Notes under the pieces: generated by a model | What the model saw: only the letters and a program-made list of their open reading frames with translations | What the model was told of the DNA's origin: nothing | The model's database searches: none | Assembly (NCBI GenBank): GCA_016197005.1 | Contig: JACPWO010000001.1 | Span: 410,544 to 474,543, forward strand | Reading direction: 5' to 3' | Origin: Candidatus Anderseniibacteriota bacterium | Lineage (GTDB): Bacteria > Patescibacteriota > Andersenbacteria > UBA10190 | Length of the DNA: 64,000 bases | Translations under genes and position numbers: made by a program | Shown: positions 15,717-33,968 of the stretch, piece after piece | How positions within the stretch are numbered: position 1 is the stretch's first letter | How the letters are laid out: each line of letters starts with the position of its first letter

Positions 15717-16622
15717 ATGTCGCACAATATTAAATCCCTTCACTCTGACTTTATCGAGGAACTAGAGATTGGTTTAGGGCGTAGCCCTAAGACAGTTGAG
15801 AACTATGATAGATACTTACGAGCATTTTTTGAGCACGGGAAAATTGCGGAACTAGCAGATATAACCCAAGAGAGCGTCCGTAGCTTTCGGCGACATATTA
15901 GTCAAAATGGAGCGGCGCTGCCTACTCAGAACTATTACCTTATCGCCATCCGACAATTCTTAAAATATTTAATAAAACGGGATATTGAAGTGTTGTCTCC
16001 AGAAAAGATTCAACTGGCAAAATTACCTGACCGAGATATCGATGTGCTCTACCCTGAAGAAGTCGATATGCTTCTCGGGGCTGTAATCCCTGACATTTCT
16101 CGTCTCCAAGCCCTTCGAGACAAAACTCTATTTAACGTTTTGTTTTCTACCGGTATGCGTATTTCTGAGGCAATACGACTCAATCGCGATGACGTCCGCC
16201 CCCACAGCAATGAAATGACCGTGCGCGGTAAAGGCAACAAAGTACGAGTAGTGTTTTTATCCGAAGAAGCGCTCGGGCAAGTCCATGAGTACCTCGAGCG
16301 ACGCACGGACACGGACCCGGCTTTATTTGTTCGTCACCGCAAAAATGTCGGCAATGAAGATGATTTGCGTATTACTCCCCGCACGGTCCAGCGTCTCATT
16401 AAGCGTTACGCAGCCGCAGCCGGCATCACAAAAGATATTACGCCACATACCCTGAGGCATTCATTTGCCACTGATTTACTTTCTAACGGCGCAGACGTCC
16501 GCCAAGTACAGCAGCTTTTAGGCCACTCTTCTATTACTACCACTCAGGTGTATACCCACTTTACTGATGTTCAACTACGCGGCGTTCACGAACGCTTCCA
16601 CCACAAGAAAAAATCTACGTAA
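15717..16622 (+). CDS. xerC: Tyrosine site-specific recombinase XerC/XerD family
   Basis: 301 aa. It has an N-terminal SAM-like domain, and the catalytic residues R...HTLRHSFATDLL...LLGHSSITTTQVYTH are present. Confidence 0.85.
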   Translation: MSHNIKSLHSDFIEELEIGLGRSPKTVENYDRYLRAFFEHGKIAELADITQESVRSFRRHISQNGAALPTQNYYLIAIRQFLKYLIKRDIEVLSPEKIQLAKLPDRDIDVLYPEEVDMLLGAVIPDISRLQALRDKTLFNVLFSTGMRISEAIRLNRDDVRPHSNEMTVRGKGNKVRVVFLSEEALGQVHEYLERRTDTDPALFVRHRKNVGNEDDLRITPRTVQRLIKRYAAAAGITKDITPHTLRHSFATDLLSNGADVRQVQQLLGHSSITTTQVYTHFTDVQLRGVHERFHHKKKST

Positions 16623-17667
16623 TAAGTTCCATGCCACAAGGAAGATCACCACTGCGCTCGAGGCTTAGTAACGTCTCCCCAATGTTTGTCCAACGCACGA
16701 CACTGGCTGGCCCAGAAAATCCTCCCATGCCGCCTCGTACCAAGGCAGGCAGTCCTTCGGCTGCTTCAATTAAGCCGTAGCGCGCTAAGACGTCACGAAT
16801 AAGGAGCTGCTCCATTACAACGGGCAAGGCAGATTCGTGATAGAGGTCAAGTAGTGTTTGTGGCCCATCTTCTCCCGACAATAATCCTGACTGCTCCCAT
16901 AATCCCTGGTATCCATCGAGCAGCGCAAAACTAATATCCGTTGTTGTTTGTACTTGCCCCGCTCTGGTGCCACGAGCCAGATCCCAAATTAACGGCAGGT
17001 ATTCTTGGACAACATCGAGATACTGAGACCAAGCGGAGGCAAATCCACCCCAGCGAACATGGTAGACATCAGCATGCCACAATACATAAAAACGTTGTGG
17101 GTACGGTAGATCATCAAAGCGTTCGTGACGAGATTTTACGACGGTCAATTTTCCTTGGTATACCCGAGTAAGTTTTAGGGTATTCAAAACGAGTCGCAGC
17201 CGTGATAGACGCGGACAACCCCATTCGTGTTCAGGGGTTTCAATAAAATATCCCCGCAGTGATGGTAGCGCAGCGGTGAGACGTGGCAATTCATGAGCCG
17301 CAAAGATTGTTTCCCCTTCCTGCTTTACTAAATCCGCCGGGTGAGCGGCTAGTTCGTCCAGTAGCCCAAGGGCATCACGTAGAGCTGGAGCATCGAGCAC
17401 TTCTTGACTGGTCAGAGGTATCTCTAGTGGATACGAGGCGTGTTCGTGCTGAGAATGCCATGTCTGTGTTATTACTTTTCGCCACTTTTCCTGCAAAATG
17501 CCAGAAATCTGAAATTCATCAGCAAATACTTGGCAGACCGTCTCTGGATCTGGGGCTTTTGCAATAATTTTCACCATGCGGTCGTAAAATTTCTGGCTTG
17601 GAATGCCAGAAAGCTCGAGAAGAGCTTTGATAGCGTACTGATCAGTAGTGGTCGAAGAAGAACTCAT
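16615..17667 (-). CDS. Hypothetical protein
   Basis: 350 aa, no TM and no recognisable motif; locally higher GC. Confidence 0.5.
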   Translation of the reverse strand: MSSSSTTTDQYAIKALLELSGIPSQKFYDRMVKIIAKAPDPETVCQVFADEFQISGILQEKWRKVITQTWHSQHEHASYPLEIPLTSQEVLDAPALRDALGLLDELAAHPADLVKQEGETIFAAHELPRLTAALPSLRGYFIETPEHEWGCPRLSRLRLVLNTLKLTRVYQGKLTVVKSRHERFDDLPYPQRFYVLWHADVYHVRWGGFASAWSQYLDVVQEYLPLIWDLARGTRAGQVQTTTDISFALLDGYQGLWEQSGLLSGEDGPQTLLDLYHESALPVVMEQLLIRDVLARYGLIEAAEGLPALVRGGMGGFSGPASVVRWTNIGETLLSLERSGDLPCGMELIT

Positions 17668-20387
17668 GCAATAGTTACTTGAGCTTCAGTATGTTCTTTT
17701 CCTAATTTCTTGTCCAAAAGGACAAAAATAATATCTTCCCCTTTTAGCTGCGCTTTAATAGAAGATCCCTTCGGGAATTCACCTGACAATAGGGCTGTTG
17801 CTAAAGGATTTTCGAGGCGACGCTGGATTTCACGTCGCAGCGGACGAGCACCAAATGTAGGGTCAAACCCCTCTTGAGAGAGTCGATTGCGCACTTCCTC
17901 ACTAATTTCTAGCTGCAACCCTTGAGCCGCTACTAGACGGCGAACTTCTTCCAGCATAATATCTGCAATTTTCTGCACATGCTTCTTTTCGAGGGGGTGG
18001 AAAACGATCGTTTCATCGACCCGGTTCAAGAACTCTGGCCGAAATACTTCCTTTAGTTTTTGTCCTAACAGCTCTTTGAGGTCTTCCCAGGCTTTCTTAT
18101 CAGTTTGGGCTCGTCGGGCGGCTGTTTGGATCATATCGCTTCCTACATTGCTCGTCATAACAATGAGGGTGTGCCGGAAGTCTACTGTGCGACCCTTGCC
18201 ATCAGTCAGGCGTCCATCTTCAAATACTTGCAGGAGAATATTTAAGACATCAGGATGCGCTTTTTCAATTTCATCGAGCAAAATGACGGAATATGGTCGA
18301 CGACGAACGGCTTCGGTGAGTTGCCCTCCTTCATCGTGACCGACGTAGCCAGGCGGCGAACCAATCATTCGAGAAACCGCATGTTTTTCCATGTATTCCG
18401 ACATATCAAGGCGAATCATGGCGTCTTCTGAACCAAAGAGAGTGAACGCGAGTGCTCGAGTAAGCTCCGTTTTTCCGACACCGGTTGGTCCTAAGAATAG
18501 GAAGGATCCTTGAGGTCGTTTAGGATCTTTTAATCCCGCACGATTGCGACGAATAGCCTCAGAGACTGCCTTTACCGCTTCGTCTTGAGCGATTACTCGT
18601 CGATGTAGTTCAGTTTCCAGAGTGAGGAGACGTTGTCGCTCTGACTGAGTAAGCTGTTCTACCGGTATACCAGTCCAGGCTGAGACGATTGAGGCAATAT
18701 CCTCTGTAGTAACTTCTGCTTGAGAGGTACCTGTCTTTTTCTTCCACGTTTCTTCCTGTGCTTTACTATCTTTTTCCAGTTCTCTTATTTTTTTAGTAAG
18801 TTTTGCCATTTCCATCTTTTTCTTAGCACGTTTTACAGCCGCGAGTTCGCGTTTAGCTATTTTGATTTTCTCTTGGAGGTTTTGTAACGAAGCGGGAGCC
18901 TGAATAGTACGCAGACGGACTTTCGCTGCCGCCTCATCCATAAGATCAATGGCTTTATCCGGCAGGAAACGAGCCCGAATATATTTATCTGACAACGTTA
19001 CCGAGGCAACAATGGCCGCGTCGGAAATAGATATTTTGTGATGAGCCTCATATTTATCTTTGATACCGCGGAGGATATCGATGGCGTCAGGAATTGTAGG
19101 CTCTTCAATAAGGATGGGTTGGAAACGACGCTCCAGTGCCCCATCTTTTTCAATATGTTTTTTATATTCATTTAAGGTAGTAGCACCAATAACTTGTAGT
19201 TCGCCGCGTCCTAAGGCAGGCTTCAAAATATTCGCGGCATCCATGGTACCGCCTTCTCCGCCGGCCCCGGCACCGACGACAGTGTGTAATTCATCGATGA
19301 ACAATATAACTGTTCTTTTTGCCGTTTCTACTTCCTCGATTACTTTCTTGAGACGGTCTTCAAATTCTCCTCGGTATTTCGTACCAGCGACCATACCAGG
19401 TAAATCAAGAGAAAGCACTCGCTTTCCTTTCAGGGCATCCGGTACTTCGCCGTTTATAATTCTAGCCGCTAAACCTTCTGCGATCGCAGTTTTCCCAATA
19501 CCGGGCTCACCAATAAGCACAGGGTTATTTTTCGTCCGTCGCGAGAGAATTTGAATCACTCGCTGCACTTCTTCGGCGCGACCAATGACCGGATCAAGCT
19601 TTCCTTCTTTCGCTAACACTGTTAGATCACGACTGTATTGATCAAGCGTTGGTGTGTTCGATTTTTCTTTGGCCTGACCAGTTTTCTTCCCCGTCTCGCC
19701 GACCGCCGACAGTACTGCCTGGCGCAGTTTGGTAGGCGTTAGGCCATACTTCTTCAACGTCTGTGACGCCAAGCCATCCCCTTCTTCTAAAAGACCGATT
19801 AAGACATGTTCACTACCAACATAGTCATGCTCTAAGTTTCGAGCAGCGTGCCAGGCAAGCTCAAGAGCTTGTTTGGCGCGAGGCGAAAGGTCAGGAAGAG
19901 CGCCTTCCTCGTACTTCTTTTCTTCTTTTGGCATATTTTCCCGCAGATAACCAACGAGTTCTTCTGAATCAATGTCTAAATTATCAAGTATCTTCTTGCT
20001 AACATCTTTCTCTTGAGCAACACCAATAAGGAGATGTTCAGTGTCTAGGGCAGGGGAACCAGCTTTTTGAGCTTCCTCGGCCGCTGCTTGAATAACTTCC
20101 TTAGCGCGATCGGAGAATGCATCAAGAATATTAACTTGTTGAGTGGTCGGAGCTTGTTCTGACATACCTGCATGCCGGTGTTGCCCTCTTCCAAAAAACG
20201 GATCATCAAAAAAACCACTCCCAAAACCAGGAAAACCGGCAAATGGTGAATCGTACGATGAGGAAGTTGATCGAACTCCCAATTCTTCTGCACACGCATT
20301 ACAGAGGTTTAATTCCGCCGTGTGGCCATTCACAGTACGCTGCACTCGCAAGACTGCGGGGCGGCTTTTACAACGCTGACAGTTCAT
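17664..20387 (-). CDS. clpC: ClpC-type Clp ATPase (double AAA+) with N-terminal ClpX-like C4 zinc ribbon
   Basis: Start at [36 protein letters not shown] (C-x2-C-x22-C-x2-C). A Gly/Phe-rich linker is followed by Clp_N repeats and a D1 Walker A (GEPGIGKT). A UVR-like coiled coil sits between D1 and D2. D2 has a Walker A (GPTGVGKT) and a sensor-2. Confidence 0.85.
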
Positions 20388-20521
20388 AGGCTGTAGTATA
20401 CAAAAACATAGGATATCCGCTCGACTATTCCGTATATTACCTCCACTTTCAAGACTTTGAGTAAAAAAATCCGCGTACATCCAATAATTGGACATACGCG
20501 GGAATGAACAGATGGGACCGA

Positions 20522-21466
20522 CTACCAACAATAGTAGAATCGGCCACTGCACGGATCCCAGTACCACTGAACCGGTCGACACGGCCAAGCGTAAGCCGTA
20601 TTCATCGTTTGTGGCGGGAGAGTGCTTGTCGGCAGCGAGATGGTCTCGACCGTCTTCTTGACGGCTGGGCTATCACACGAATGAATCAGCTCCTTGATGA
20701 CACTGACGATGCGCTCGCAGCAGTCATCTTCCGATGAGGGAGGACTTTTTGAAAGCGCCTCATTCACGGAAAGCTGAGCGACCATGCACAACCTTGACGG
20801 GTCCTGCCAGTTGACACCAAACTCCGCTTGCGCTGCCTCTCGGTAGCTTGCGACAGCGTTGGTGAGAGTTTCCACCTTGGATTCGACACGTAAACTACTT
20901 CGCTCGATGCGCTCGAGCCGCTCGACGACGTCTTTCTCGAAGTTGTCTCCAAAATTCGTCGCTGGCGGACTTTTGTCGGATTCGAGAGTCTTCAAGCGGC
21001 TTTCGTGATTTTCGAGCGTCGTCTGTTGCTTTCCCAACTTTTCTTCATGTTCACCAAGCTTTTTCCCGTGCTCGGCCACTTGGGGAAAGAAAAACTCAAA
21101 CGCTTGCCGCGTGAGCTCTTCCTTGCTCGACGTTGGAAGCGCCTGAGCAATCCTTGCGCCTTCTTCGCGCTGCACACGAGCAGCCTCGATGAAGAGATCA
21201 CGGACATCGATTGACTGTGGGACAGTCGCAGCTGCGTTCGTCGCGACGCCCGCGGGAGACGTTGTCGATGGCGCAACCGTTGTCGGAGCGGGGGCGGCGG
21301 GTGCTGGTGATGGAGTTGTCAGAGCCGTTGTCGAAGGGATGGCGGGCTGTGTTGGCCCGGCTTGCTTCGAATCATCAGTGTTGGAAGTGGGCAAAGTTGT
21401 CCAACCAATCGCCATCGCGATTGCAAACACCACTGCGATGACACAAATTCGGAACGACTTCTTCAT
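20522..21466 (-). CDS. Secreted hypothetical protein (signal peptide, Pro/Ala/Thr-rich linker, coiled-coil, Cys-rich C-terminus)
   Basis: 314 aa. Opens with MKKSFRICVIAVVFAIAMA. A PT-rich linker (TTPSPAPAAPAPTTVAPSTTSP) follows. The C-terminus is C/W-rich (WPCRPVQWYWDPCSGRFYYCW). Confidence 0.5.
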   Translation of the reverse strand: MKKSFRICVIAVVFAIAMAIGWTTLPTSNTDDSKQAGPTQPAIPSTTALTTPSPAPAAPAPTTVAPSTTSPAGVATNAAATVPQSIDVRDLFIEAARVQREEGARIAQALPTSSKEELTRQAFEFFFPQVAEHGKKLGEHEEKLGKQQTTLENHESRLKTLESDKSPPATNFGDNFEKDVVERLERIERSSLRVESKVETLTNAVASYREAAQAEFGVNWQDPSRLCMVAQLSVNEALSKSPPSSEDDCCERIVSVIKELIHSCDSPAVKKTVETISLPTSTLPPQTMNTAYAWPCRPVQWYWDPCSGRFYYCW

Positions 21467-21669: not shown

Positions 21670-22404
21670 TTAGGGAACGCCTCCAAAGCTGGGATAGGTC
21701 AGCTCTCCACGCCAGCTATGGTTCGCATGTTTACAATCAAACATATACCGCAGTGTCGGATCAGTTACCAGATACGTTTTACGACGACAGTCGTCGATAT
21801 ACGCCTGCTGGTAGGTACGGACCGACTCTTGCAATCGGCTGCGCTCTGCCCAGTCCTTGAGCTCGAGTTGCTTTCTCAGCTTCTCGTTCTCTGCTGCAGT
21901 AGCAGCAGTCTGCGCAGCCCTATCAGCACTTTGCTGTTGCAGAAGACCAGCGATTTGCTGCTGCAGCGCCACGACATCTGGCGAAGGACCACCTGTCGCC
22001 TGTTTAGGAGCCAGGACAGTAGCCAGTGGAATCAGGAGAGCGGCGTCCGCTTCCTTCTTCATCTGGTACTCCTTGACCGCCGTCATCCGCTCAATCATGC
22101 GATCGGCGGCATCAGGTTGCTGCGGCTGGTTTGAGACACTCGTGCGAGGCCACTCGGCGAGCACTTGTGAATTTCTTCCGTCCAGCTTTCCGTTGATCTC
22201 CCGAAGCAGCCTCGTGGTATTCGTCGCATTACTTTCCAGGGCTTCAAATCGCGGCTTAATGTTTCTGAGGTCGTACTCTGTGAATTTGTCAGAGACTACC
22301 TTGGAAACTTCTTCTTTCGTCGCGTACGACTTTTTTGAATCCCCACATCCGCTTACAACTAAACAGACGCAGACGACCAGAGCAGTGTTGAGGTAACGCT
22401 CCAT
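21670..22404 (-). CDS. Putative lipoprotein, coiled-coil
   Basis: 244 aa. A signal peptide with lipobox-like LVVSGCG, then Q/A/E-rich coiled-coil segments. Confidence 0.5.
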   Translation of the reverse strand: MERYLNTALVVCVCLVVSGCGDSKKSYATKEEVSKVVSDKFTEYDLRNIKPRFEALESNATNTTRLLREINGKLDGRNSQVLAEWPRTSVSNQPQQPDAADRMIERMTAVKEYQMKKEADAALLIPLATVLAPKQATGGPSPDVVALQQQIAGLLQQQSADRAAQTAATAAENEKLRKQLELKDWAERSRLQESVRTYQQAYIDDCRRKTYLVTDPTLRYMFDCKHANHSWRGELTYPSFGGVP

Positions 22405-23753
22405 GGTGAGATTTCTCCTTCGAGTTGAGTGGTGTCAGGTTGAGTAGTGGGCTGGGAGTTGTCTTCACTCGATGAATCTTTGAGCAAGCTCTCACCCACC
22501 GGGGGTAGTTCAATCTTGATCTCGTCTTCGCTTTGAAGCGATGACGAGGACTCAGAACGAAAGTTTGACCAGGTAACTATAGCAACAACGAGCAGAATGC
22601 CCGCAGCCGCAGCAGCTCCCCAGTACCAACGATTCTGGCGTCTTCTCCGCGCAGTGATTTCCAATTGAAGCCTATCGAGATCATTTCGAGTGGCTAGCGG
22701 CACTTCGTTTTTTGCCAAGGCAAGGTCAGCATCATACTTCGTTTTGGAAACTGCAGTAGCAGCTTCCCCAAGCTTGGCCTTAACCTTCTCGACACCCTCC
22801 GGCGTCGTATCTTCGCCAGTAGCATCTTTCCAAGACTGCCGAAGAGGGGTCAACGCCGCACTCACTGCCGCGTCCACCTGATCCTTCGTGAAGTGATCCT
22901 TACGAAGCGTAGTGAGATCGCCTTGTAGACGAGCGCTTTCTTTTAGTGCCTCATCAAGCTTATCGACGAGCAGAGGATCAGTGCCACTTGGCACCGGAGC
23001 AGGGTTTGTATTAGCCACGCGACGCGGATTTGCCACAATCAGTGGCACTGCCCCATCGATAGCTTTGTCCAACTCATCGATCGCATCCGTGCGGTTGCTT
23101 GTTAGATTCCATTCAGGCGGAATGAGAACCAGCGGAACTTTGAATGAGTCCCTGATATGAAGGAGCACGTCACAAAATGTCGTGTATGCTTGCTCATCCG
23201 TATTCCGAGACCGGTGCAGATCGCGGTACTGCTTACTAGACAACGTATGTCCAGCCTTCTTCAACGCTTCCAGCAACTTCTCACGAAGCTGCGCGCGTCG
23301 AATGGTCATCTCGATCTCATCCTTGATTGTGTTCAGCTCGTCCGACCGACTGCTAACATCGCCATCGGCAATGTTTGCCTCTGTCCATCCTTTAGGGTTG
23401 GCCAAAAGCGTGAGACAATGGCCTCGTTCCCCATCCTTTAGGGCCGAAGCATTGGTCACTTTGCGGTCGAGTTGTCGCACAAGATCAACAAGCTCTTTCT
23501 TTTCCATGTTTCTGTTCTCCGTTTTTGGGGTAGGAATGTATCGATGAGGACGTACACTCCTATCGATGGTTAAATTGCCGTTTTCTTGCTCGTCGCGAAG
23601 ACGAGATGTGATAGCACTAGCATGTACATCGAAGCCACGCTCTTTCAGCTTAGCCACAATGTCTTTTGCCAGAAATCCATCGGGGTTTACCTGCTTTACT
23701 GCTTCAAGAACAGCAGGGAAATCCTGCTGCCAAGAGTTTTGAGAACGGTTCAT
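22359..23753 (-). CDS. Hypothetical single-pass membrane protein (cytoplasmic winged-helix-like N-domain, coiled-coil, C-terminal TM and acidic/Ser-rich exterior tail)
   Basis: 464 aa with a TM helix WYWGAAAAAGILLVVAIVTW near residue 390. The N-terminal 70 aa resemble a small helical DNA-binding-like domain; this is a weak impression. Confidence 0.5.
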   Translation of the reverse strand: MNRSQNSWQQDFPAVLEAVKQVNPDGFLAKDIVAKLKERGFDVHASAITSRLRDEQENGNLTIDRSVRPHRYIPTPKTENRNMEKKELVDLVRQLDRKVTNASALKDGERGHCLTLLANPKGWTEANIADGDVSSRSDELNTIKDEIEMTIRRAQLREKLLEALKKAGHTLSSKQYRDLHRSRNTDEQAYTTFCDVLLHIRDSFKVPLVLIPPEWNLTSNRTDAIDELDKAIDGAVPLIVANPRRVANTNPAPVPSGTDPLLVDKLDEALKESARLQGDLTTLRKDHFTKDQVDAAVSAALTPLRQSWKDATGEDTTPEGVEKVKAKLGEAATAVSKTKYDADLALAKNEVPLATRNDLDRLQLEITARRRRQNRWYWGAAAAAGILLVVAIVTWSNFRSESSSSLQSEDEIKIELPPVGESLLKDSSSEDNSQPTTQPDTTQLEGEISPWSVTSTLLWSSASV

Positions 23754-25157: not shown

Positions 25158-26285
25158 TTGAACGGTCACCTCAATCCCCAGACAGTGAGCTTGAGCATTA
25201 TTGGAGTATTCATTGGTTTGTGCGTGGCGTTGGCTTCGCTGGCTTCAACCCCAGCAGCCACAACGCTGTGGGCGATCCTGCCCATCCCTATCCTTCTCAT
25301 TGTTGCCTTCGGCTGCATTTATAGCATTCCGACAAATAAAATGGGTGTGATTCGTTTATTAAACGGGCCGCAGGTAGCTGCGTTCGTGAACAGCGACACA
25401 GCTAGGCAGCACGAGGATCATCTAATGGATCCAAATGGAGTTGCTATACATCGTGGGAAAACGATGCTCGAGTGTGGTGCTTCCGAAGGAATCTTCGGAT
25501 TTCCCCTCATCATTATTATCCCGAAGCTTTACACTCTCACGTGGTTTCCAACTTCACCTCAAGAGGTAGACATTGCGGCAACACAAGTTCAAACAAAACC
25601 AATAGGAGAAGACACTGGCAAGATTTCGGGCACGGTAGACTCTACATTCTACCTGACTGTCGGGCCGAACGTGAGTCAACTCTTCCAAGGGGTGCCAGAT
25701 ATTGCCAATTACAACGATCTGGCAGAGAAGTGCAAGATCAAGAATAAAAGTGGAAAAGAGTTCGAGGGCACCCGGTTCGAGAGTCTTCTCCATAGTGCGT
25801 TTGAGGAAACAATTCGAGGAGCAATTCGATCGGCCGTCGCCCTTGAGTTCACCTATCGAGGGAAAAATGATGATCTGGACAAAAATACCGCTAAGCTCGA
25901 AGAAATGGTTTTCGAGAAGCTCCATGAGCCTGGCAGTGTGTTGGTGAAGGGCGGTGTCATCAGCGATGTTTGGCCGAATTATCTCGGTCCGAGCGTTTTG
26001 TCCAATAACTTCGTTGTTGAGACTATTGATTGGCCAGAGGATGTGAAAAAAGCTGAGAACCAACCAATAATCGCGCAGCGAGAGGCTACCGCTGACATTA
26101 TCAAACGGAAAGCAGCTGGTACCGGCGACAAGCAGGCTCTGGAGGAACTCATATCCACCGGAGTATCCAAGGAACAAGCTCTTATGAGCACGACCTTACG
26201 CCAGGTTTCTAATGCCACCGTTATCAATGTTGGCAGTAGTGGGATCCCCATTACCCTCACAACAACTCCACCGAAAACCCCATGA
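25158..26285 (+). CDS. SPFH/band-7 (stomatin/flotillin-like) membrane protein
   Basis: 375 aa. Two N-terminal TM helices, then GVIRLLNGPQ...GFPLIIIIPKLYTL...VDIAATQVQTK...ISGTVDSTFYLTV, which resembles the SPFH core, and a C-terminal coiled-coil tail. Confidence 0.5.
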   Translation: MNGHLNPQTVSLSIIGVFIGLCVALASLASTPAATTLWAILPIPILLIVAFGCIYSIPTNKMGVIRLLNGPQVAAFVNSDTARQHEDHLMDPNGVAIHRGKTMLECGASEGIFGFPLIIIIPKLYTLTWFPTSPQEVDIAATQVQTKPIGEDTGKISGTVDSTFYLTVGPNVSQLFQGVPDIANYNDLAEKCKIKNKSGKEFEGTRFESLLHSAFEETIRGAIRSAVALEFTYRGKNDDLDKNTAKLEEMVFEKLHEPGSVLVKGGVISDVWPNYLGPSVLSNNFVVETIDWPEDVKKAENQPIIAQREATADIIKRKAAGTGDKQALEELISTGVSKEQALMSTTLRQVSNATVINVGSSGIPITLTTTPPKTP

Positions 26286-26297: not shown

Positions 26298-27308
26298 ATG
26301 ACTGAATTTTTTCGTTCGGAAACAGGAGTAGCAAGTATTCTACTGATTATCTTCAGCGCAATTGCTCTGACGATAATTATAAAGAAGTTTGCGCCCGCCG
26401 TTACCTTCGGATGGATCAAGAAGGTACCAACCTCCCCTGTGTTTTGGGCAATTATCTTCATATTGTTCCTCACGCCTTGGGGCTGGTCACTCACGCGCCA
26501 GATTGCTTCTTTGCCAGTACGCACCCATGGTGACCCCACCATGGTGGCGTACATAACCGGTGAAGATACATCAGAGCAGGAGACGGGAAATGAGGAAATC
26601 ACCTCCCCCTTCACGTTTGAGATGGCCCGACTAGTGTATAGCCGAGAGCCATTCCAAAATGGCGCCACTCCAAATTCTTCCCAGTCGTTTCCCACATACG
26701 AGATCACTACCGAAGGTCAAAACCCAACGGTATTCTCAGGGATCGACTGCACGCTGTGTCAAGGAGGCACAATTGTAACCAGTTGCCCTCAATCTGGGGA
26801 AGGGTTCCGAAAGAGATTACACCTTGGCTCGGAATCAGATTGGATATCTTTGCCACGTACAGAACATGAGTGGTCTATTGATGGGGACGATGAACTGCTC
26901 TATCTCCGGGGAACTGGAAGTGTGGGTAATCGGTTTACTCCGAACCTACAAATCCGTTTGCCCGGAAAAGCCATTGTAACCCGCTCTATTTGGCAGATAT
27001 CTGGTGGGGAATCAGTAAAATGGGGGAAAATTCCTCTTTTGCCGTCAGGCTGGCAGTGGACACTCTCCCTTCGTTTCGTCAGACCCGATGCTGTGTCGTT
27101 TCCTCCAGAAGTGTGGAGTGCTGATCGCGCTGCGTTCATTCTATGGGCAGCAGATGAGTCACACATCCTTCACGAAGAAAAGTTGGCACAAGAAGAAACA
27201 AAGCGTACCAACCAAATCGTGAAGGAGGATGCAGTTCTGGAAATCTTCGCGCCTCACTTGCCGGAGCTCGTCGAAGTACGAGCGACTCTCCGTATTGAGC
27301 CGCTTTGA
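26298..27308 (+). CDS. Hypothetical membrane protein (two N-terminal TM helices, Cys-containing extracytoplasmic domain)
   Basis: 336 aa. It sits 13 bp downstream of the SPFH gene and could be an NfeD-like partner; this is speculative. Confidence 0.45.
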   Translation: MTEFFRSETGVASILLIIFSAIALTIIIKKFAPAVTFGWIKKVPTSPVFWAIIFILFLTPWGWSLTRQIASLPVRTHGDPTMVAYITGEDTSEQETGNEEITSPFTFEMARLVYSREPFQNGATPNSSQSFPTYEITTEGQNPTVFSGIDCTLCQGGTIVTSCPQSGEGFRKRLHLGSESDWISLPRTEHEWSIDGDDELLYLRGTGSVGNRFTPNLQIRLPGKAIVTRSIWQISGGESVKWGKIPLLPSGWQWTLSLRFVRPDAVSFPPEVWSADRAAFILWAADESHILHEEKLAQEETKRTNQIVKEDAVLEIFAPHLPELVEVRATLRIEPL

Positions 27309-27359
27309 TTGTTCTTTAACCTCAACCCCGCCGTTCGGTTTTACCGAGCGGCGGATTTT

Positions 27360-27584
27360 TTATATCCAAGAAATAATAATATTGGCGATCGCGGCGAAAA
27401 AACCAAGCATGACGAGACTGACTAGAAGTTTTAAAAAGGTGTTACGAATTGGAATCTGTTTATCTCCGTCGCCATAGTTCCAATTAAATTGAACAGATGC
27501 ACGGATAATAAGAAGTAAAAGTATTGAGGCGATAAGAAGAAAGACTCCGTTTACTCCAATCGTAATCAAAGCGCGGTCCAGCAT
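27360..27584 (-). CDS. Small two-TM membrane protein (hypothetical)
   Basis: 74 aa with two hydrophobic helices. Confidence 0.3.
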   Translation of the reverse strand: MLDRALITIGVNGVFLLIASILLLLIIRASVQFNWNYGDGDKQIPIRNTFLKLLVSLVMLGFFAAIANIIISWI

Positions 27585-27663
27585 GTTTTTAGTGTACTAA
27601 AAATCCTTATATATAACACAACGAGCAGGGATCCTGCTCGTTGTGAGTCGAAACACTTAACGC

Positions 27664-28011
27664 TTAAGCGCCAGAAATAGCACTAATAACGAAGTTAACG
27701 ATAGCTGCTGATAGACCAATAACGATCAATCCAATTACAGCGTAGAGAATTGTATTCTTCGCTTTTTCAGTAGCATCTTCATCGCCTCGAGAGGTGATGT
27801 ACTGGATGCCTCCAAGAATGAGAACGATGGCAGCAACCAAGCCTGCGAGCAAAAGGAATACGTTGATAATATTCACGATTGCTGTTGGCAGATCGCTATC
27901 TGAAACGCCGAGCCCAGCAGGTGCTCCACCTAATTGAGCCAAGGCAATGCTTGGAGCGGCTGCTGTAGCAACAGCGGCTGCGCGCATAAACCACTTAGAC
28001 ATGGAATTCAT
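27664..28011 (-). CDS. Pilin-like small membrane protein (TrbC/VirB2-like / T4SS-pilin-like two-helix protein), paralog 1
   Basis: Signal-like MNSMSKWFMRAAAVATAAAPSIALA, helix 1, the shared motif GGIQYITSRGDEDATEKAKNTILYAVIGLIVIGLSAAIVNFVI, and helix 2. Confidence 0.55.
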   Translation of the reverse strand: MNSMSKWFMRAAAVATAAAPSIALAQLGGAPAGLGVSDSDLPTAIVNIINVFLLLAGLVAAIVLILGGIQYITSRGDEDATEKAKNTILYAVIGLIVIGLSAAIVNFVISAISGA

Positions 28012-28066
28012 ACACGCCTCACCTCCTCCGGTAGTAGATCTTGTGTCATATCTCTTAATGATAATA

Positions 28067-28462
28067 TCACTCAAAAGCTGTTATCACAAAGTTTACAATT
28101 GCGGCAGCAAGACCGACGACTAATAAACCAATCGCAGCATACATAATAGTATGCTTTGCTGTTTCAACCTGACCCTCATCACCTCGAGAGGTAATATATT
28201 GAACACCAGCAATAATGATCACAATGACAGCAACTAACGCTATAAACCCTAAGAAGACATTAATGACTTTTACAACAATACTTTTTATATCTTCCGCTGA
28301 TTCTCCGTCGGCAATGCCTAAATCAGAACCAGATACGGTATCAAATTTAGCTATTTTAAATCCATCTTCCGCATCGGCAATAAGACCAATGATTGGAAAG
28401 GCACTAACCGACATAATACTGACGGTAAATGAGAAAATAACTGTTGAGAGTAAGCGATTCAT
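28067..28462 (-). CDS. Pilin-like small membrane protein, paralog 2
   Basis: 131 aa with the shared module AGVQYITSRGDEGQVETAKHTIMYAAIGLLVVGLAAAIVNFVI. Confidence 0.55.
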   Translation of the reverse strand: MNRLLSTVIFSFTVSIMSVSAFPIIGLIADAEDGFKIAKFDTVSGSDLGIADGESAEDIKSIVVKVINVFLGFIALVAVIVIIIAGVQYITSRGDEGQVETAKHTIMYAAIGLLVVGLAAAIVNFVITAFE

Positions 28463-28515
28463 GAAGTAACGTTAAGGGTTATTTAAGGAGAGGGTTTGGG
28501 ACAAGAAGACCCATT

Positions 28516-28899
28516 TTACGTTGTTAAGGTAATTGCAAAATTTACTATAATGGCGGCTAGACCAATGAGGACTAGCCCAATTACTGCATAAAGTATTACC
28601 CGCTTGCCATGAGCAGCTTTATCTTCATCCCCGGCTGAGGTGATATACAAAAATCCACCATAAATAACTACCGCTACAGCAACAAGACCAACAATACCCA
28701 AAAAGACATCTACAGCCTTTTTAATAAATTCTACCGGTTCTTGTTCTGATAAACCTGTATCCGCGGCAAGAGAGCCGGCACCACCAAAACCAGACTGTAA
28801 ATCAGCACGAGTAATCGTTGGACTTAGAATAAGTACTAAGCCAATAAGGAATAAGCTGTTTGCTAGTAATCTAGATATTTTTGAGCCGCTAAACATCAT
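28516..28899 (-). CDS. Pilin-like small membrane protein, paralog 3
   Basis: Start at MMFSGSKISRLL. Module GGFLYITSAGDEDKAAHGKRVILYAVIGLVLIGLAAIIVNFAI. Confidence 0.55.
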   Translation of the reverse strand: MMFSGSKISRLLANSLFLIGLVLILSPTITRADLQSGFGGAGSLAADTGLSEQEPVEFIKKAVDVFLGIVGLVAVAVVIYGGFLYITSAGDEDKAAHGKRVILYAVIGLVLIGLAAIIVNFAITLTT

Positions 28900-28901
28900 A
28901 T

Positions 28902-29576
28902 TTAATTGATTCCAAAAATATTTCCAACCAGACGTATGATAACGTAAGCAGTGCCTATCAAAACTAACCCCAACACGGCATACCACATGATATGCTTTCC
29001 TTTTTCGACTCGGCGTTCATCGCCAAGGGAAACAACTACCATAAATGCACCAATAATAAACACTGTCGCAGCAACAATCGCTGCTATCGAAGTGATGTAA
29101 TCGACAATGTTATACGCGAGTGTGTAGCTATCAAGATTAGGCAACTTAGTTCCTTCTTTAATTGTATCTAGACCTATAATGCTTTGAGCTGCATAAGCAA
29201 TTGGGATAGACAACAAAGGTCCTTGAGAAACACCAAATATTTCTGTCGCAATAATGCTAATAATAGTGTAAGCCAGTATAGAAACGACTAATCCAGCAAT
29301 TGACCATTTCACAATACCTTTTGCGCTAGAAAGGCCGTGTTCATCGCCGACCGCTACAATCATGCGAATACCCCCAAATACAACTCCGAGTAAGGCTAGG
29401 ATAGCCACAAGACCAAGGAGCCAATTAGTAAAATTAATCAAAACACTTGTAAAAGTGACATTATCACCTAATGGGTTTTTAATAGCTGGGCCTAGTGCTA
29501 GTACATCTCCAGCTGCAATGATAAAGACTAAGGAAAGACAAATGGCCCCTATCGCAATACTAGAGTAATACTTCAT
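28902..29576 (-). CDS. Tandem-duplicated (two-module) pilin-like membrane protein, paralog 4
   Basis: 224 aa containing two copies of the module: GGIRMIVAVGDEHGLSSAKGIVKWSIAGLVVSIL and GAFMVVVSLGDERRVEKGKHIMWYAVLGLVLIG. Confidence 0.55.
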   Translation of the reverse strand: MKYYSSIAIGAICLSLVFIIAAGDVLALGPAIKNPLGDNVTFTSVLINFTNWLLGLVAILALLGVVFGGIRMIVAVGDEHGLSSAKGIVKWSIAGLVVSILAYTIISIIATEIFGVSQGPLLSIPIAYAAQSIIGLDTIKEGTKLPNLDSYTLAYNIVDYITSIAAIVAATVFIIGAFMVVVSLGDERRVEKGKHIMWYAVLGLVLIGTAYVIIRLVGNIFGIN

Positions 29577-30868
29577 AACTCTTCCTTACTTATCCGTTCA
29601 AGCTTATCTTTCGCCTCCTCAAGAGCATCCGGAATACTTTGTATGCCCTTAACGACATTTTCAATCATGGTGTTAAATATAGCATCGGTTGCCACGATAT
29701 CTGAACGTGGCCAGCTGGCAGCAATAAGAGCTTGGTCAGCAAAGACGCCTAGGGTTGGATCAGACTGAACAAGCGGAATGGTATCACGTCGAGCAGGTGG
29801 AGCCACTTGAGCTTCGTTAATTACTTGTGAAGCCGATGCTCCTGTCAAAAAGCGTATTAGTTGCCAGGACAAATCGGGACTGCGCGAGCTGATTGAAACG
29901 GCAAATGGCCAGTAACTCGCAAATGTGACTGGTTTTGAGTTATCAGGAATTTGGGGAACCGGAGCAATACCAAACCGTAGACGTGAATTCTTCGCTCTAA
30001 TAGTGGGTATGTGATAGGAATAGTTAATCATCATTGCGGTCTTGCCTTCTGAAAAAGCATCAATTGAATACGTTTGTGAAGAATCCCAGGTATACACCTT
30101 CTTAGATTTGTTTGCGAAATCGTAATAAAAAATAAGAGCTTTTTCACCAATTTCCCCCTCAGTAATATCTGATCGGCCGTCCTCCTTTAGAATGCTTAAC
30201 CCCTGCTGCATCATCAGCATCTGTAAAACATCGCTCGCCCGGTTAATATTGCTGGCCGTACCCATAGCCGCACCGCTTCCCCCGTCTTGGATAATGCCCA
30301 GCCGGCTTACCTTCGTCAGTTTTTCAACTGCTCGTTGAAAGTCAGTCCAAGTCCGAGGCGCATTCGCAATACCAGCAGCGGCCAGCAAGTCTTGGTTATA
30401 GTACAACGCCAACGTGTCTACTGAAGTCGGCAGGGCATATACGAAGTTATCTCGAATAAGGTCATCAAGAACAACCGGAACAAATTCTTCTTGGGCTTGG
30501 CGAAGCGTAATAATCTCCGGTGGAGCTGGACTCATAATTCCCCGCTTACTTTCAACCCAGGTGTGATGAATAACGAATACATCAGGACCACGACCTTCTG
30601 CTAACGCTGTTAGGAGCTCTTGCTCGTAGCTGGCAACATTCCCCATATTCTTGTATTCAACGGCGATTCCCGTTTGAGCCTTGAATTGTTCGAGGAGTGG
30701 GTCGATCCAGGCACTTTCTTGCCACAAGCCCCACACAACCAATGGATCGCCAGTAATACCCTTGTCTCCTACCCCAGTCGGCGTCCGACAACCAAATCCG
30801 GTAAGAGCGAGAATACTTATGACAACAAGAGCAAGGAGAGGTAATTTTGTTCGAAAAGAGGTATTCAT
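29573..30868 (-). CDS. Extracellular solute-binding protein family 1 (ABC-type sugar-binding protein-like), probable lipoprotein
   Basis: 431 aa. Signal peptide with Cys (LALTGFGC), then a periplasmic binding fold (VVWGLWQE...DVFVIHHTWV...ALPTSVDTLALYYNQDLL). No permease or ATPase partner is in the window. It overlaps the next gene by 4 nt. Confidence 0.75.
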   Translation of the reverse strand: MNTSFRTKLPLLALVVISILALTGFGCRTPTGVGDKGITGDPLVVWGLWQESAWIDPLLEQFKAQTGIAVEYKNMGNVASYEQELLTALAEGRGPDVFVIHHTWVESKRGIMSPAPPEIITLRQAQEEFVPVVLDDLIRDNFVYALPTSVDTLALYYNQDLLAAAGIANAPRTWTDFQRAVEKLTKVSRLGIIQDGGSGAAMGTASNINRASDVLQMLMMQQGLSILKEDGRSDITEGEIGEKALIFYYDFANKSKKVYTWDSSQTYSIDAFSEGKTAMMINYSYHIPTIRAKNSRLRFGIAPVPQIPDNSKPVTFASYWPFAVSISSRSPDLSWQLIRFLTGASASQVINEAQVAPPARRDTIPLVQSDPTLGVFADQALIAASWPRSDIVATDAIFNTMIENVVKGIQSIPDALEEAKDKLERISKEEL

Positions 30869-31404
30869 CAGGACTTTTTCAATATGAGGCCGTAATGGTA
30901 AGGACTTGGCTTAAATTCTTTTTCGACAGAAAGGTTAGCGTTTTGGGCAAATTGAATAACGTCATTCTTTGGTCGACGAGCCTCGGACGGCGGCCCAAAA
31001 GGTGTGGCGCCTGTATCCCACTCAACCACAACAACACGACCACTGGTTGATACAATACGAGCAGCTTCCTGAAATATTTTCTCAGGATCAGATTGATGCA
31101 AGATGTTGGCAGTAAGCACCCAATCAATATCGTTATCAGGCAACCCACTGCCCCCTACTTGCTCAAGATTGGCCCGCTTCGTAGAGACGATATCTTCCAA
31201 GTTTTCTCGTTTGGCCTTGTTTTCTACCTCAGCCAGCATGTCCGGCAAGATATCAAAGCCGTACGCCTTTCCCTTTGCGCCGACAATATGGGCTGCTGGC
31301 AATAAATAAAACCCAGCACCGCAGCCTAAGTGCACTACTTTTTGCTGAGCGCGAAGACCTAAGTTGCGCCAAAACGCGTCGGGACGAATGAAGGAGTCAT
31401 TCAT
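30868..31404 (-). CDS. Class I SAM-dependent methyltransferase
   Basis: 178 aa with motif I VVHLGCGAGFY and a short Rossmann fold. Confidence 0.75.
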   Translation of the reverse strand: MNDSFIRPDAFWRNLGLRAQQKVVHLGCGAGFYLLPAAHIVGAKGKAYGFDILPDMLAEVENKAKRENLEDIVSTKRANLEQVGGSGLPDNDIDWVLTANILHQSDPEKIFQEAARIVSTSGRVVVVEWDTGATPFGPPSEARRPKNDVIQFAQNANLSVEKEFKPSPYHYGLILKKS

Positions 31405-31478
31405 AGATATCTAATACAACGCCATCATACCACACCCACTTACGGCAACGAAAAAACAGATTGTAGTCTTATTGCGCC

Positions 31479-33968
31479 TTAGTCTTCCTCGCTCTGCCAA
31501 CTGGTAAAGGTAGCTACTTTTCCGCTTTTATCAGTAGGACGCATAATACGAACACCTTGAGTTGATCGGCCTTGAATGGTAGCTGATTTGCTTGGCACGC
31601 GAATAACTTGGCCCCGCTCGGAAATAACAAGCAGGTCGGTTGTACTAACGGATTCGCTGTCAACGAGGGCTGAATTCACAATAACTCCAGTCTTAGGCGT
31701 GAGTTTGGCTGTTTTAATACCAGAGCCACCTCTTCCTTGGACACGATAGTCCTTGATTGGGGTTCGTTTGCCAAACCCTTCGGTCGTTATAACCAACACT
31801 TCATGACCATCTAATTTTCCATTGGCAATAACGTGCATACCAGCTACTTCATCACCACCTTTGAGGTTAATCCCGCGTACGCCTGCAGCCGGCCGCCCCA
31901 TAGCCCGAACATCCTTTTCAGAGAAATGAATGGCTTGTCCCTTACGGGTTACTAAAATGATATGGTCTTTGCCCGAGGAGGCGGCAACCCATTCCAGAGC
32001 ATCTCCATCATTAAGACCAATAGCTTTAAGACCAGAGCGACGGATGTTTTCAAACTCAGTACGGGATGTTTTTTTGATAAGACCGCGGCGAGTCGCCATG
32101 ACTAAGTACTCCCCCACATCTTCCGCGGCTGGGAGAACTTGCATAGCTGTTACCTTTTCATCTGGCCCTAATTCTAAGAAGTTTTGGACGGCCTGACCCT
32201 TAGCCTGACGGGCAGTCGCCGGAATCTCGTAGGCGCGGGTAGAGAATACTCGTCCTTTATTTGTGAAAAAGAGTAATTGTTTATGAGTGGTAGTGGCTAA
32301 GAAAATATCCACCACATCTTCTTCCTTGGTTGTCATTCCTTTTACGCCCTTACCGCCTCGTCGCTGAACATGATAGGCGCTCGTAGGAATACGCTTGATA
32401 TATCCACCACGAGTAATAGTGACAACCCCTGGTTCATCGGGAACTAAATCTTCCTGAGAGAAATCACCGACTGCTTGAACGAAGATGCGAGTTCGACGGT
32501 CATCGCCATACTTCTTAGACATTTCTACATAGTCGTTTTTAACAATCAGCAAAACCTTTTTTGGATCTTTTAAGATGCCGGTCAGTTCGGCAATGAGTTT
32601 CCTCTTCTCTGCCAGTTCATCTTCTACTTTTTGACGTTCAAGGCCGGCAAGTGTTTGTAGACGCATTTCCAAAATGGCGGTGGCCTGAGGATCAGACAGT
32701 GCAAAACTCTTACGCAAGTTTACATGAGCCAGTTCTTTTGTTTTGCTCTTCTTAATAGTGGCAATGATTTGATCGATGTGATCAAGAGCCTTTTTTAAGC
32801 CTTCTAAGATGTGAGCCCGTTCTTTCGCACGATCAAGATCATACTGCGTACGCTTGGTAACGACGTCCCGTCGGTGATTAATGTGCTCTTGGAGAGTGTC
32901 TTTAAGGGTAAGAACACGAGGCTGACGACCACCATCGACCAAGGCAAGCATGTTTACGTGGAAAGATTTCTGGAGATCAGTGCTAGCAAATAACTGATTC
33001 AACACTTTTCGAGGAAAGGCGTCTTTTTTAAGTTCAATAACAATACGAATACCATCTTTGTCAGATTCATCGCGAAGATCCCGAATACCTTCAAGGCGTC
33101 CTGCCTTTACGCCATCGGCAATGCGAGTAATTAAAGCTGCCTTGTTTACAAGGTATGGAATTTCTCGAACAATAATTTTATGTGCTCCTTTAGCGTCTTC
33201 TTCAATATCGGCAATAGCTCGCATCACGATACTGCCTTTGCCAGTAGCATATGCTTGAATGATTTCCCGACGGTTATATATTGAAGCACCTGTTGGAAAA
33301 TCGGGGCCTTTCACGAACTTCATTAAGTCCTCTACGGTTGCATCTGGATTATCGGCAAGGTAGCGAGCAGCATCACACACTTCTCGCAGGTTGTGAGGTG
33401 GAACGTTAGTAGCCATCCCGACAGCAATACCAATAGTGCCGTTTATTAAGAACTGCGGGATTTTACTGGGCAGAACTGTTGGTTCTTTACGAGTAGCATC
33501 ATAGTTACTAGCAAACCGAACCGTTTCCTTTTCAATATCAAAAAGCATTTCATCAGCAATGGTTTCTAGTCGCGCTTCTGTATAACGAGGAGCAGCAGGG
33601 TTATCGCCGTCAATGCTACCCCAGTTACCTTGGCCATCTACTAAGGGGTAACGAAGAGAGAAATCTTGGGTGAGACGAGCGAGCGCATCATAAATCGCCA
33701 TATCTCCATGCGGGTGAAACTGTGCCATAACCGTACCGACTACGTTGGCAGCTTTGCGGAACTTTGCGGATGAGCGAAGTCCTTGTCGCCACATGGTATA
33801 GAGGATACGACGATTAACCGGCTTGAGACCGTCACGAACATCAGGAAGGGCGCGGGAAACAATAACGCTCATTGCGTAGTCAAGATAACTACGCTGAATT
33901 TCACTCGATAACTCTTGGTCTATAAGTTTCCCAACAGCTTCATCAAATTGTTTTTTTACTTCAGCCAT
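31479..33968 (-). CDS. gyrA: DNA gyrase subunit A
   Basis: 829 aa. An N-terminal YAMSVIVSRALPDVRDGLKPVNRR with the active-site Tyr region, and C-terminal beta-pinwheel repeats. Confidence 0.95.
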   Translation of the reverse strand: MAEVKKQFDEAVGKLIDQELSSEIQRSYLDYAMSVIVSRALPDVRDGLKPVNRRILYTMWRQGLRSSAKFRKAANVVGTVMAQFHPHGDMAIYDALARLTQDFSLRYPLVDGQGNWGSIDGDNPAAPRYTEARLETIADEMLFDIEKETVRFASNYDATRKEPTVLPSKIPQFLINGTIGIAVGMATNVPPHNLREVCDAARYLADNPDATVEDLMKFVKGPDFPTGASIYNRREIIQAYATGKGSIVMRAIADIEEDAKGAHKIIVREIPYLVNKAALITRIADGVKAGRLEGIRDLRDESDKDGIRIVIELKKDAFPRKVLNQLFASTDLQKSFHVNMLALVDGGRQPRVLTLKDTLQEHINHRRDVVTKRTQYDLDRAKERAHILEGLKKALDHIDQIIATIKKSKTKELAHVNLRKSFALSDPQATAILEMRLQTLAGLERQKVEDELAEKRKLIAELTGILKDPKKVLLIVKNDYVEMSKKYGDDRRTRIFVQAVGDFSQEDLVPDEPGVVTITRGGYIKRIPTSAYHVQRRGGKGVKGMTTKEEDVVDIFLATTTHKQLLFFTNKGRVFSTRAYEIPATARQAKGQAVQNFLELGPDEKVTAMQVLPAAEDVGEYLVMATRRGLIKKTSRTEFENIRRSGLKAIGLNDGDALEWVAASSGKDHIILVTRKGQAIHFSEKDVRAMGRPAAGVRGINLKGGDEVAGMHVIANGKLDGHEVLVITTEGFGKRTPIKDYRVQGRGGSGIKTAKLTPKTGVIVNSALVDSESVSTTDLLVISERGQVIRVPSKSATIQGRSTQGVRIMRPTDKSGKVATFTSWQSEED

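Follow-up and report, generated by a model that had tools for sequence, protein, structure and literature searches.

A solute-binding protein gene heads a conserved array of predicted VirB2/TrbC-type pilins in Andersenbacteria and other Patescibacteria

What brings a MalE-like solute-binding protein and a series of conjugation-type pilins together in one gene cassette, with neither a secretion machinery nor a transporter encoded nearby? The question arises from a group of minus-strand genes lying downstream of gyrA in a genome of Candidatus Anderseniibacteriota bacterium (assembly GCA_016197005.1, contig JACPWO010000001.1), of which a stretch of 64,000 nucleotides (positions 410,544 to 474,543), hereafter the window, was analysed. 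From upstream to downstream, the cassette contains genes for a methyltransferase (MT) and a solute-binding protein (SBP), four genes for pilin-like proteins that we call P4, P3, P2, and P1, and a short terminal open reading frame (ORF) (Table 1). A preliminary description of the window had named an incidental linkage as an outcome that would count against its reading. Our analysis showed the opposite, as the succession of SBP and pilins is strict and strand-specific across Andersenbacteria and several other lineages of Patescibacteria.

The evidence for this comes from a survey of the SBP family in which each species was represented by one genome; it gave 45 loci (numbered with the prefix L; 30–65% identity) whose flanks were scanned with a hidden Markov model (HMM) of the pilin module, described below. 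Pilin modules on the same strand were found within 1.5 kb downstream of the SBP gene in all of the 41 loci (30–68% identity) having at least 500 nt of downstream sequence, with a median distance of 173 nt from the SBP to the first hairpin core, and within 1.5 kb upstream in none of 40 loci. Counted by position, 204 modules were located downstream of the SBP and 0 in 330 kb of upstream flank. According to the labels of the records, these loci belong to Andersenbacteria, Paceibacterota, Spechtbacteria, Doudnabacteria, Minisyncoccia, and unclassified Patescibacteria. Many records with clear Andersenbacteria synteny (L005–L046) are labelled as “uncultured Candidatus Saccharibacteria”, “Gammaproteobacteria”, or “Bdellovibrionales”, names that look like placeholders and are unfit for taxonomy.

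Within Andersenbacteria, the adjacency could simply be inherited, since the whole block is syntenic there: an S1 gene, a gene for a metallo-beta-lactamase (MBL)-fold protein, gyrA, MT, SBP, the pilins, a leaderless hairpin, two convergent unknown genes, and a glycosyltransferase of family GT4. Inherited synteny was separated from true linkage by gene-family clustering, and at L036, L038–L041, L043, L045, L046, and L048 the flanks were found to be wholly different and the cassette intact. Some of the distant lineages carry FtsK, RecA, a DinG-like helicase, a DksA-like protein, and LspA upstream of the cassette, and FtsH and RNase III downstream of it; in others, GalU lies upstream of the SBP. 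The MT family was present in 37 of the 48 clustered sources, which include the window and two contigs of the same species, and in most loci its gene immediately precedes that of the SBP, also in some that have no gyrA (L036, L048), with LspA or GalU in its place in others.

The identity of the small proteins was addressed with two kinds of profiles. The module HMM, built from the five hairpin cores and run on 734 six-frame ORFs of the window, recovered all five modules at E values of 1e-31 to 1e-34, two of them as separate domains of P4 (domain values 1e-30 and 2e-33), in agreement with the five copies that had been described in the four genes between 27664 and 29576 (minus strand). Against the Pfam family PF18895 (T4SS_pilin; gathering score 26.6 bits), all four proteins exceeded the gathering score: P1 with 51.5 bits (E 1e-13), P2 with 42.0 (1e-10), P3 with 56.4 (3e-15), and P4 with 61.0 (1e-16, two stretches). 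Two of them also passed the threshold of PF04956 (TrbC/VirB2; 27.9 bits), namely P1 (32.1 bits) and P2 (31.0), with P3 just under it (26.4) and no match for P4, and P2 passed that of the NCBIfam model NF045849 for Mbov_0395 pilin-like proteins (42.6 bits against a cut-off of 40), P1 and P3 being slightly under. The early guess of TrbC/VirB2-type pilins is thus borne out, and judged by these profiles and by their architecture, the four genes encode five VirB2/TrbC-type pilin modules. Similarities to DctQ, tetraspanin, and cytochrome bd were considered as well and rejected as hydrophobic noise, far under the cut-offs, and a search of Protein Data Bank (PDB) sequences with the pilin profile gave only chance-level matches to MacB transmembrane segments.

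Hydropathy and alignment gave the same plan for these modules, in which a leader precedes two helices, the first of them hydrophobic, that are separated by a short charged loop, with candidate leader cleavage sites read by eye as ALA-Q, ADA-E, and TRA-D. The exception is module 2 of P4, where only a short linker (IPIAYAAQS) stands in place of the leader, which looks like a relic of it. An AlphaFold2 (AF2) model of P1, computed from 60 sequences, had a mean predicted local distance difference test (pLDDT) score of 84.8, with the leader helix at residues 2–25 and the hairpin at 41–73 and 78–113. The preliminary description had attributed to every module a signal-like segment and the motifs YITSxGDE and LYAVIGL..GL.A.IVNF: the former holds for all but P4 module 2, and the motifs hold for P1–P3, only G-D-E being common to the five. 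Its estimate of 44–70% identity among paralogs proved too high, since we measured 45–50% along the full length of P1–P3 (about 60% in local BLAST alignments of their hairpin cores), and the modules of P4 are 21–32% identical to the other modules and to each other. The cores of P2 and P1 are 61% identical, each being closest to its paralog from the same genome.

The cassette does not end at P1. The terminal ORF at 27360–27584 was detected by the module HMM at E 9e-4 over nearly its full length, the next best ORF of the window having an E of 1.4, and it joined the pilin family in BLAST clustering, with no Pfam match of its own. Leaderless hairpins of 72–86 amino acids are terminal in most Andersenbacteria arrays, and the motifs are conserved in an alignment of 20 ORFs of up to 90 residues, mostly terminal ORFs of relatives. 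On these profile and clustering results, the ORF is a divergent sixth pilin-like module.

The double pilin P4 is not an artefact of assembly, since the identical protein was found on 4 independent contigs, and such a tandem fusion would be topologically allowed because both ends of each hairpin lie outside the membrane. Other genomes likewise encode fusions of two to four modules, the four-hairpin proteins being those of L016 (11726–12877), L020 (12518–13744), L022 (13111–14259), and L028 (a 368-aa ORF). Other proteins of the pilin family have a very large N-terminal ectodomain and one end hairpin, among them a 666-aa Cys-rich protein and a 471-aa protein (L045, 11360–13360, and L040, 12201–13616). 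In the Andersenbacteria loci L016, L019, and L028 (e.g., L028, 13789–16933), a glycosyltransferase–methyltransferase fusion of 400–680 aa is found within or just after the array, accompanied by an inserted polytopic membrane protein of about 385 aa; these insertions may be a hint that the envelope or the pilins are glycosylated.

In agreement with the preliminary description, the SBP belongs to family 1; it is MalE-like and has the two-lobe fold of periplasmic binding proteins. Its sequence is 100% identical to that of a protein listed by NCBI from a Candidatus Andersenbacteria MAG. It matched SBP_bac_1 (PF01547) with 119.6 bits (cut-off 26; E 4e-34) and SBP_bac_8 with an E of 2e-27, and its AF2 model (pLDDT 80.6) retrieved in Foldseek the beta-1,2-glucooligosaccharide-binding protein 5ysf and the MalE proteins 3uor and 6dtu as top matches (E ~1e-23), with a probability of 1.00 to MalE-like chains, template modelling (TM) values of 0.69–0.84, and 19–23% identity. 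It would bind carbohydrate, with which the many Trp and Tyr residues invariant among its close homologs fit. Its signal peptide ends in G-F-G-C27, a box that differs from the canonical L-[AS]-[GA]-C, and because Cys27 is invariant in 23 close homologs and the lipoprotein signal peptidase LspA (Peptidase_A8) is encoded in the window (6106–6456), the protein is probably a membrane-tethered lipoprotein. The position of LspA beside the SBP in a Doudnabacteria-like group was also considered as support for this and rejected, as those SBPs have no Cys. An SBP without partners also matters in the Patescibacterium Southlakia epibionticum, where SEML1_0634, an orphan family-5 peptide-binding protein encoded beside SecG, was scored as essential in transposon sequencing (PMC10633639).

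The gene preceding the SBP encodes what its profiles indicate to be a generic class I S-adenosylmethionine (SAM)-dependent methyltransferase, again as first described. It matched Pfam Methyltransf_31, Methyltransf_11, and Methyltransf_25 (54.9, 50.1, and 46.3 bits; E 1e-14 to 7e-12), all NCBIfam equivalogs were far under their cut-offs, and the closest solved chains are the uncharacterised methyltransferases 3i9f and 3dh0.

We then asked where the machinery for such pilins, or for such an SBP, is encoded. Pfam scans of the ORFs of the window agree with the preliminary description in that no VirB4, VirD4, type IV pilus (T4P) ATPase, or ABC permease or ATPase was found (no BPD_transp, no ABC_tran), and no type IV secretion system (T4SS), ABC permease, or ATPase gene was detected in the 10 kb beyond either edge of the window. 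T4SS genes adjacent to recG were looked for and none were found, and phmmer searches with T4SS proteins of Saccharimonadia gave nothing in the window or in 46 SBP cassettes with their 10-kb flanks. The EAA motif, or Walker A plus LSGGQ, appeared in none of the 8,788 six-frame ORFs of the window and the 46 loci, in a scan whose positive control worked. That the window has no T4SS genes need not, however, mean that there is no T4SS, as Table S1 of PMC12102498 lists VirB4 in the three Andersenbacteria metagenome-assembled genomes (MAGs) that hold L016, L029, and L030 and, among the rows examined, in 5 of 8 Andersenbacteria MAGs. T4SS machinery therefore exists in the lineage, encoded elsewhere, as far as can be read from that table, whose MAGs are relatives and not the source of the window.

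When the context was instead looked up starting from pilin homologs on long contigs, seven of the eight cases showed a cluster of the Saccharimonadia type, with VirB4/DUF87, TraC-like, PrgI, TrbL_3, and HSP20 genes and no SBP in any, and the eighth showed an MT, an SBP, and four pilins with no T4SS genes, so that there are two arrangements of these arrays. The pilins of the window are 45–55% identical in their cores to those encoded inside T4SS clusters.

The reading that we favour, with moderate confidence, is that a distal T4SS assembles the pilins and that the tethered SBP supplies carbohydrate recognition. By the assembly route that we infer, the pilins would be inserted through Sec, have their leaders removed, and form a pool of hairpins in the cytoplasmic membrane, their two ends on its outer side, and a distal T4SS of the monoderm type (VirB4, VirB6/TrbL, PrgI, and TraC-like proteins) would polymerise them into a pilus or an envelope-spanning conduit, with the variable pre-hairpin segments exposed outside. 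The co-produced SBP, on the outer face of the membrane and in presumed contact with the pilins, would be the carbohydrate-recognition component of this structure, either recognising glycans of the host or the environment, so as to attach or to give a trigger, or capturing oligosaccharides for uptake. The first-position pilin and the terminal leaderless hairpin would be specialised minor subunits, and the middle paralogs the bulk or variable ones.

Several of our results weigh against this reading. No T4SS component was detected in the ~84 kb around the cassette nor within 10 kb of the 46 related cassettes, and since no such gene is near any of them, the dependence on a T4SS is assumed from homology and not from linkage. 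Fold searches with the P1 model were non-specific, any helical hairpin being matched, including ATP synthase subunit c, and no VirB2 or TraA structure was among the fold matches listed; because fold comparison cannot discriminate so simple a fold, the assignment as pilins rests on the profile matches and the architecture. With respect to the SBP, about half of its more distant homologs have no lipobox Cys and show an apparent uncleaved N-terminal membrane anchor, so that the mode of tethering is not conserved. Finally, no SBP–pilin fusion protein was found, and the conserved adjacency could reflect co-regulation only.

This last point leads to the first alternative, in which the SBP would be an ordinary component of an ABC sugar importer encoded elsewhere, co-regulated with the pilins as abundant envelope proteins of the host interface and without any partnership between them. 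The profile and the fold of the SBP are indeed typical of MalE-like proteins of ABC importers, neither a fusion nor evidence of interaction with the pilins was found, and orphan SBPs that use distant permeases exist, such as PrgZ of pCF10, which works with the chromosomal Opp permease. However, gene order and strand are invariant in the 41 loci even where the other neighbours differ entirely, the ATGA overlap with the first pilin exceeds what co-regulation usually preserves, and no permease or ATPase appeared within 10 kb in any cassette scanned for motifs. We therefore consider mere co-regulation unlikely.

A second alternative, which seems to us quite improbable, is a device independent of any T4SS, in which the hairpins would oligomerise into a membrane ring or pore after the fashion of the c-ring of ATP synthase or of the small subunit of tripartite ATP-independent periplasmic (TRAP) transporters, acting as the partner of the SBP in uptake or signalling. 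It would account for a cassette never found beside T4SS genes and for an SBP without a classical partner nearby, and it would agree with the existence of fused proteins of 2–4 modules, with a weak, sub-threshold similarity of P1 and P3 to DctQ, and with the presence of ATP synthase subunit c among the best fold matches, the same Evolutionary Classification of Protein Domains (ECOD) match being listed for one pilin in the Southlakia supplement (PMC10633639). On the other hand, similarity to DctQ or to the c subunit is not significant and is what any hydrophobic hairpin would show, the scores of the modules exceed curated cut-offs for VirB2/TrbC-type pilins, their cores are 45–55% identical to those of pilins from bona fide T4SS clusters, and no energy-coupling component is linked to the cassette.

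Returning to the assembled pilin structure that we favour, the division into minor and bulk subunits draws on a comparison of module positions across species. Module 1 of P4 has its best matches among the first-position modules of other species (44–49% identity, versus 29% for its best paralog in the same genome), and in 22 of 24 Andersenbacteria loci the first-position module is nearer to its orthologs than to the paralogs of its own genome. Among Andersenbacteria locus pairs, the best match of the first-position module in the other locus was also in first position in 307 of 552. For the first-position module and for the terminal hairpin, other species have orthologs in the same position, which points to differentiated subunits, and the 25 of 94 middle modules of Andersenbacteria (about 27%) that are closest to a paralog of the same genome point to ongoing duplication. 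Across first-position pilins, the pre-hairpin segment is 25% identical, versus 46% for the hairpin core. A tendency of first-position pilins to have longer ectodomains was also considered and rejected, being a weak trend in distant lineages (median 73 versus 47 aa) and missing in Andersenbacteria. The preliminary description had seen in the divergence of the paralogs a sign of antigenic diversification, for which these positional orthologs, and the fact that only about a quarter of the middle modules look like recent duplicates, leave little support. A last alternative, in which the paralogs would be interchangeable major pilins diversifying under host pressure, antigenically or in host range, and the SBP would be irrelevant, has in its favour the low identity of the paralogs (21–50% full length, ~60% in P1–P3 cores), the more variable exposed segment, the duplications among middle modules, and its proposal for these same arrays in PMC12102498, but it can be given hardly any credit, as first-position modules are nearer to their orthologs, the terminal leaderless hairpins are conserved in position, every pilin gene has its own start and all but the terminal hairpin their own leader, and the invariant SBP would be left unexplained.

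Beyond the favoured reading, one may imagine the cassette as a new surface organelle of non-Saccharimonadia Patescibacteria, a filament or conduit of T4SS pilins with the SBP docked as a receptor on the first-position pilin, where it would choose the host by the glycans of the host's cell wall or pass the sugars it captures into the T4SS channel; we put this forward as a speculation with a small chance of being right. If the sugar-feeding option were true, the essential T4SS of Patescibacteria would work as a nutrient importer rather than as an exporter. In any case, the epibiotic lifestyle of Patescibacteria requires their T4SS and pilin arrays in the only system tested so far, and a putative carbohydrate-binding protein tied to a pilin array offers a testable handle on what these arrays transport or recognise. 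The recurrence of the cassette across several classes, with a constant order and never with a transporter, gives a hint of how these bacteria may sense their hosts or feed on them, and raises the questions of which ligand the SBP binds, whether it contacts the pilins, and whether it tracks with host range. Many of the arrays scored as “not near virB4” in PMC12102498 may also be of the SBP-headed type, and not scattered genes.

The features of the cassette and its boundaries are collected in Table 1.

Table 1. Features of the SBP–pilin cassette, given in positions of the window and listed in the direction of its reading.
Feature	Position	Strand	Basis or remark
gyrA (DNA gyrase subunit A)	31479–33968	−	upstream of MT, same strand
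gyrA–MT intergenic gap, 74 nt	31405–31478	−	sequence reading
MT, class I SAM-dependent methyltransferase, 178 aa, no signal peptide	30868–31404	−	Pfam
SBP, MalE-like family-1 solute-binding protein, 431 aa	29573–30868	−	Pfam, AF2, Foldseek
P4, fused double pilin, 224 aa, two modules	28902–29576	−	PF18895, module HMM
P4 parts: leader; hairpin module 1; linker resembling a relic leader; hairpin module 2	module 1, 29232–29456; module 2, 28908–29132		
P3 pilin, 127 aa from ATG at 28899	28516–28899	−	PF18895
P2 pilin, 131 aa	28067–28462	−	PF18895, TrbC, NF045849
P1 pilin, 115 aa from ATG at 28011	27664–28011	−	PF18895, TrbC, AF2
13-bp stem-loop right after P1 stop, candidate attenuator/terminator	27617–27645	−	terminator-like scan
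Leaderless two-helix hairpin ORF, 74 aa, terminal	27360–27584	−	module HMM, BLAST clustering
Perfect 12-bp GC-rich palindrome with T-run	27328–27354	no strand	terminator-like scan, sequence reading

MT, SBP, and the first pilin are translationally coupled, as the stop of MT overlaps the start of SBP by 1 nt (TGATG) and the stop of SBP overlaps the start of P4 by 4 nt (ATGA), overlaps that had been recognised from the start together with the position of gyrA upstream. The following gaps are of 2 nt (P4–P3), 53 nt (P3–P2), and 55 nt (P2–P1). Inspection of start codons indicated that two ORFs had been called too long: the most likely start of P1 is the ATG at 28011, which has a Shine-Dalgarno sequence, GGAGGAGG, in front of it, and that of P3, called back to 28986, is the ATG at 28899, two bases past the stop of P4. 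With regard to signals, the palindrome at 27328–27354 is a likely bidirectional terminator closing both the operon and the convergent gene at 26298–27308, and the stem-loop at 27617–27645 a possible attenuator or terminator ahead of the small ORF; both are only suggestive, because the numbers of sites in the promoter and terminator scans of the region were not above shuffle expectation. The gap between gyrA and MT may hold a promoter of the cassette itself (TGgTATGAT, extended −10-like), and the promoter scan reported nothing in it.

The two convergent genes beyond the cassette, at 25158–26285 (plus, 375 aa) and 26298–27308 (plus, 336 aa), have no Pfam match; the family of the former sits after the pilin array in 17 sources, and its 336-aa neighbour is hypervariable (~320–410 aa), falling into several unrelated clusters (f13, f21, f41, f46). 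Ten ORFs of the window of 221–595 aa also have no Pfam family at E ≤ 0.001, typical dark matter of the candidate phyla radiation (CPR): 7402–8586, 8589–10139, 16615–17667, 20522–21466, 21670–22404, 22359–23753, 48455–50242, 50315–51850, 51765–52430, and 56674–57570. None of them resembled T4SS proteins of Saccharimonadia in phmmer searches. Adjoining LspA, which is on the minus strand, two histidine-kinase-type genes and a response regulator (3918–6096, minus) make up a compact two-component system in a reduced genome. Finally, a ClpB-like ORF (17664–20588, minus; 974 aa when called from TTG), in which Clp_N begins near residue 248, has had its start over-called or else is extended to an unusual length at its N-terminus.

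How, then, does the cassette compare with known systems? Tandem arrays of pilins have been published for Patescibacteria, so that the array as such is known and not unusual: 441 VirB2-like arrays of 2–11 genes, with a mean identity of ~25%, were reported from 383 assemblies (PMC12102498), and a six-gene array inside a T4SS cluster of Southlakia epibionticum is essential for epibiotic growth (PMC10633639), as also covered by a later review (PMC12857230). The proposal of the preliminary description, a locus of unusual composition rather than a canonical T4SS, has to be revised in this light, since tandem VirB2-like arrays are a published hallmark of the phylum (PMC12102498; PMC10633639). With four pilin genes plus a small hairpin and identities of 21–50%, the present array falls within the definition of PMC12102498 (2–11 pilin genes, in tandem or one gene apart, of low identity). 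What appears undescribed is a cassette headed by an SBP and detached from T4SS genes: in the open-access literature, which was the scope of our search (subscription journals lay outside it), no paper linked Patescibacteria, CPR, or T4SS pilins with solute- or substrate-binding proteins, and neither “solute” nor “SBP_bac_1” occurs in the text of PMC12102498 or in those of its supplements that were examined.

Among more distant systems, the Gram-negative TrbC/VirB2 pilins (PF04956) share the leader and the pair of hydrophobic helices with a short polar loop between them, and P1 and P2 pass their threshold; the window differs in its monoderm host, in P3 and P4 being under the threshold, and in having no adjacent VirB operon. 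The Mbov_0395/MMCAP2_0565 proteins of the integrative and conjugative element (ICE) of Mycoplasma (NF045849) are likewise small, two-helix, and pilin-like, and come from a wall-less monoderm with a T4SS of the mating pair formation (MPF)-FATA type. They are single-copy genes of a mobile element, whereas the window has a chromosomal array of several paralogs with an SBP and no ICE genes.

On the side of the SBP, the MalE-like proteins of ABC importers (5ysf, 3uor, 6dtu) agree with that of the window in fold and profile, from which it differs by its low identity to them and by being followed always by pilins, with no MalFGK-type genes linked in the scanned loci. PrgZ and TraC are orphan lipoprotein SBPs of enterococcal conjugative plasmids that bind pheromones, have no permease of their own, and are encoded alongside Gram-positive T4SS functions. 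They are family-5, OppA-like peptide binders with a regulatory role and are not known to adjoin pilins, in contrast to the family-1, pilin-adjacent SBP of the window. The nearest functional analogy, and a precedent for joining a carbohydrate SBP to a scaffold of pilin-like proteins, is the Sulfolobus bindosome (Bas; PMC3047682), in which the functional surface display of sugar-binding proteins needs small pilin-like proteins and a pilus-type assembly machine; its SBPs carry class III, type IV pilin-like signal peptides, and its ATPase is of the T4P type, whereas the window combines a Sec/lipoprotein-type SBP leader with VirB2-type pilins and has no T2SSE-type ATPase. As leader and pilin types differ, the cassette is not a member of the bindosomes, the relation being one of analogy and not of homology, and that the organelle imagined above could be their bacterial, VirB2-type counterpart is, on this analogy, a doubtful proposal.

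The closest systems are the arrays of Southlakia (SEML1_0014–0019) and TM7x (PMC10633639, PMC12102498), which belong to the same phylum, match PF18895 with or without PF04956, and consist, as here, of tandem paralogs of low identity. Their pilin genes run either in line with or divergently from VirB4, TraC-like, PrgI, and TrbL/VirB6 genes, are flanked by HSP20, and have no SBP; the array of the window, with no T4SS gene within at least ~10 kb, carries in contrast a fused double pilin, a leaderless hairpin at its end, and an MT and an SBP at its head.

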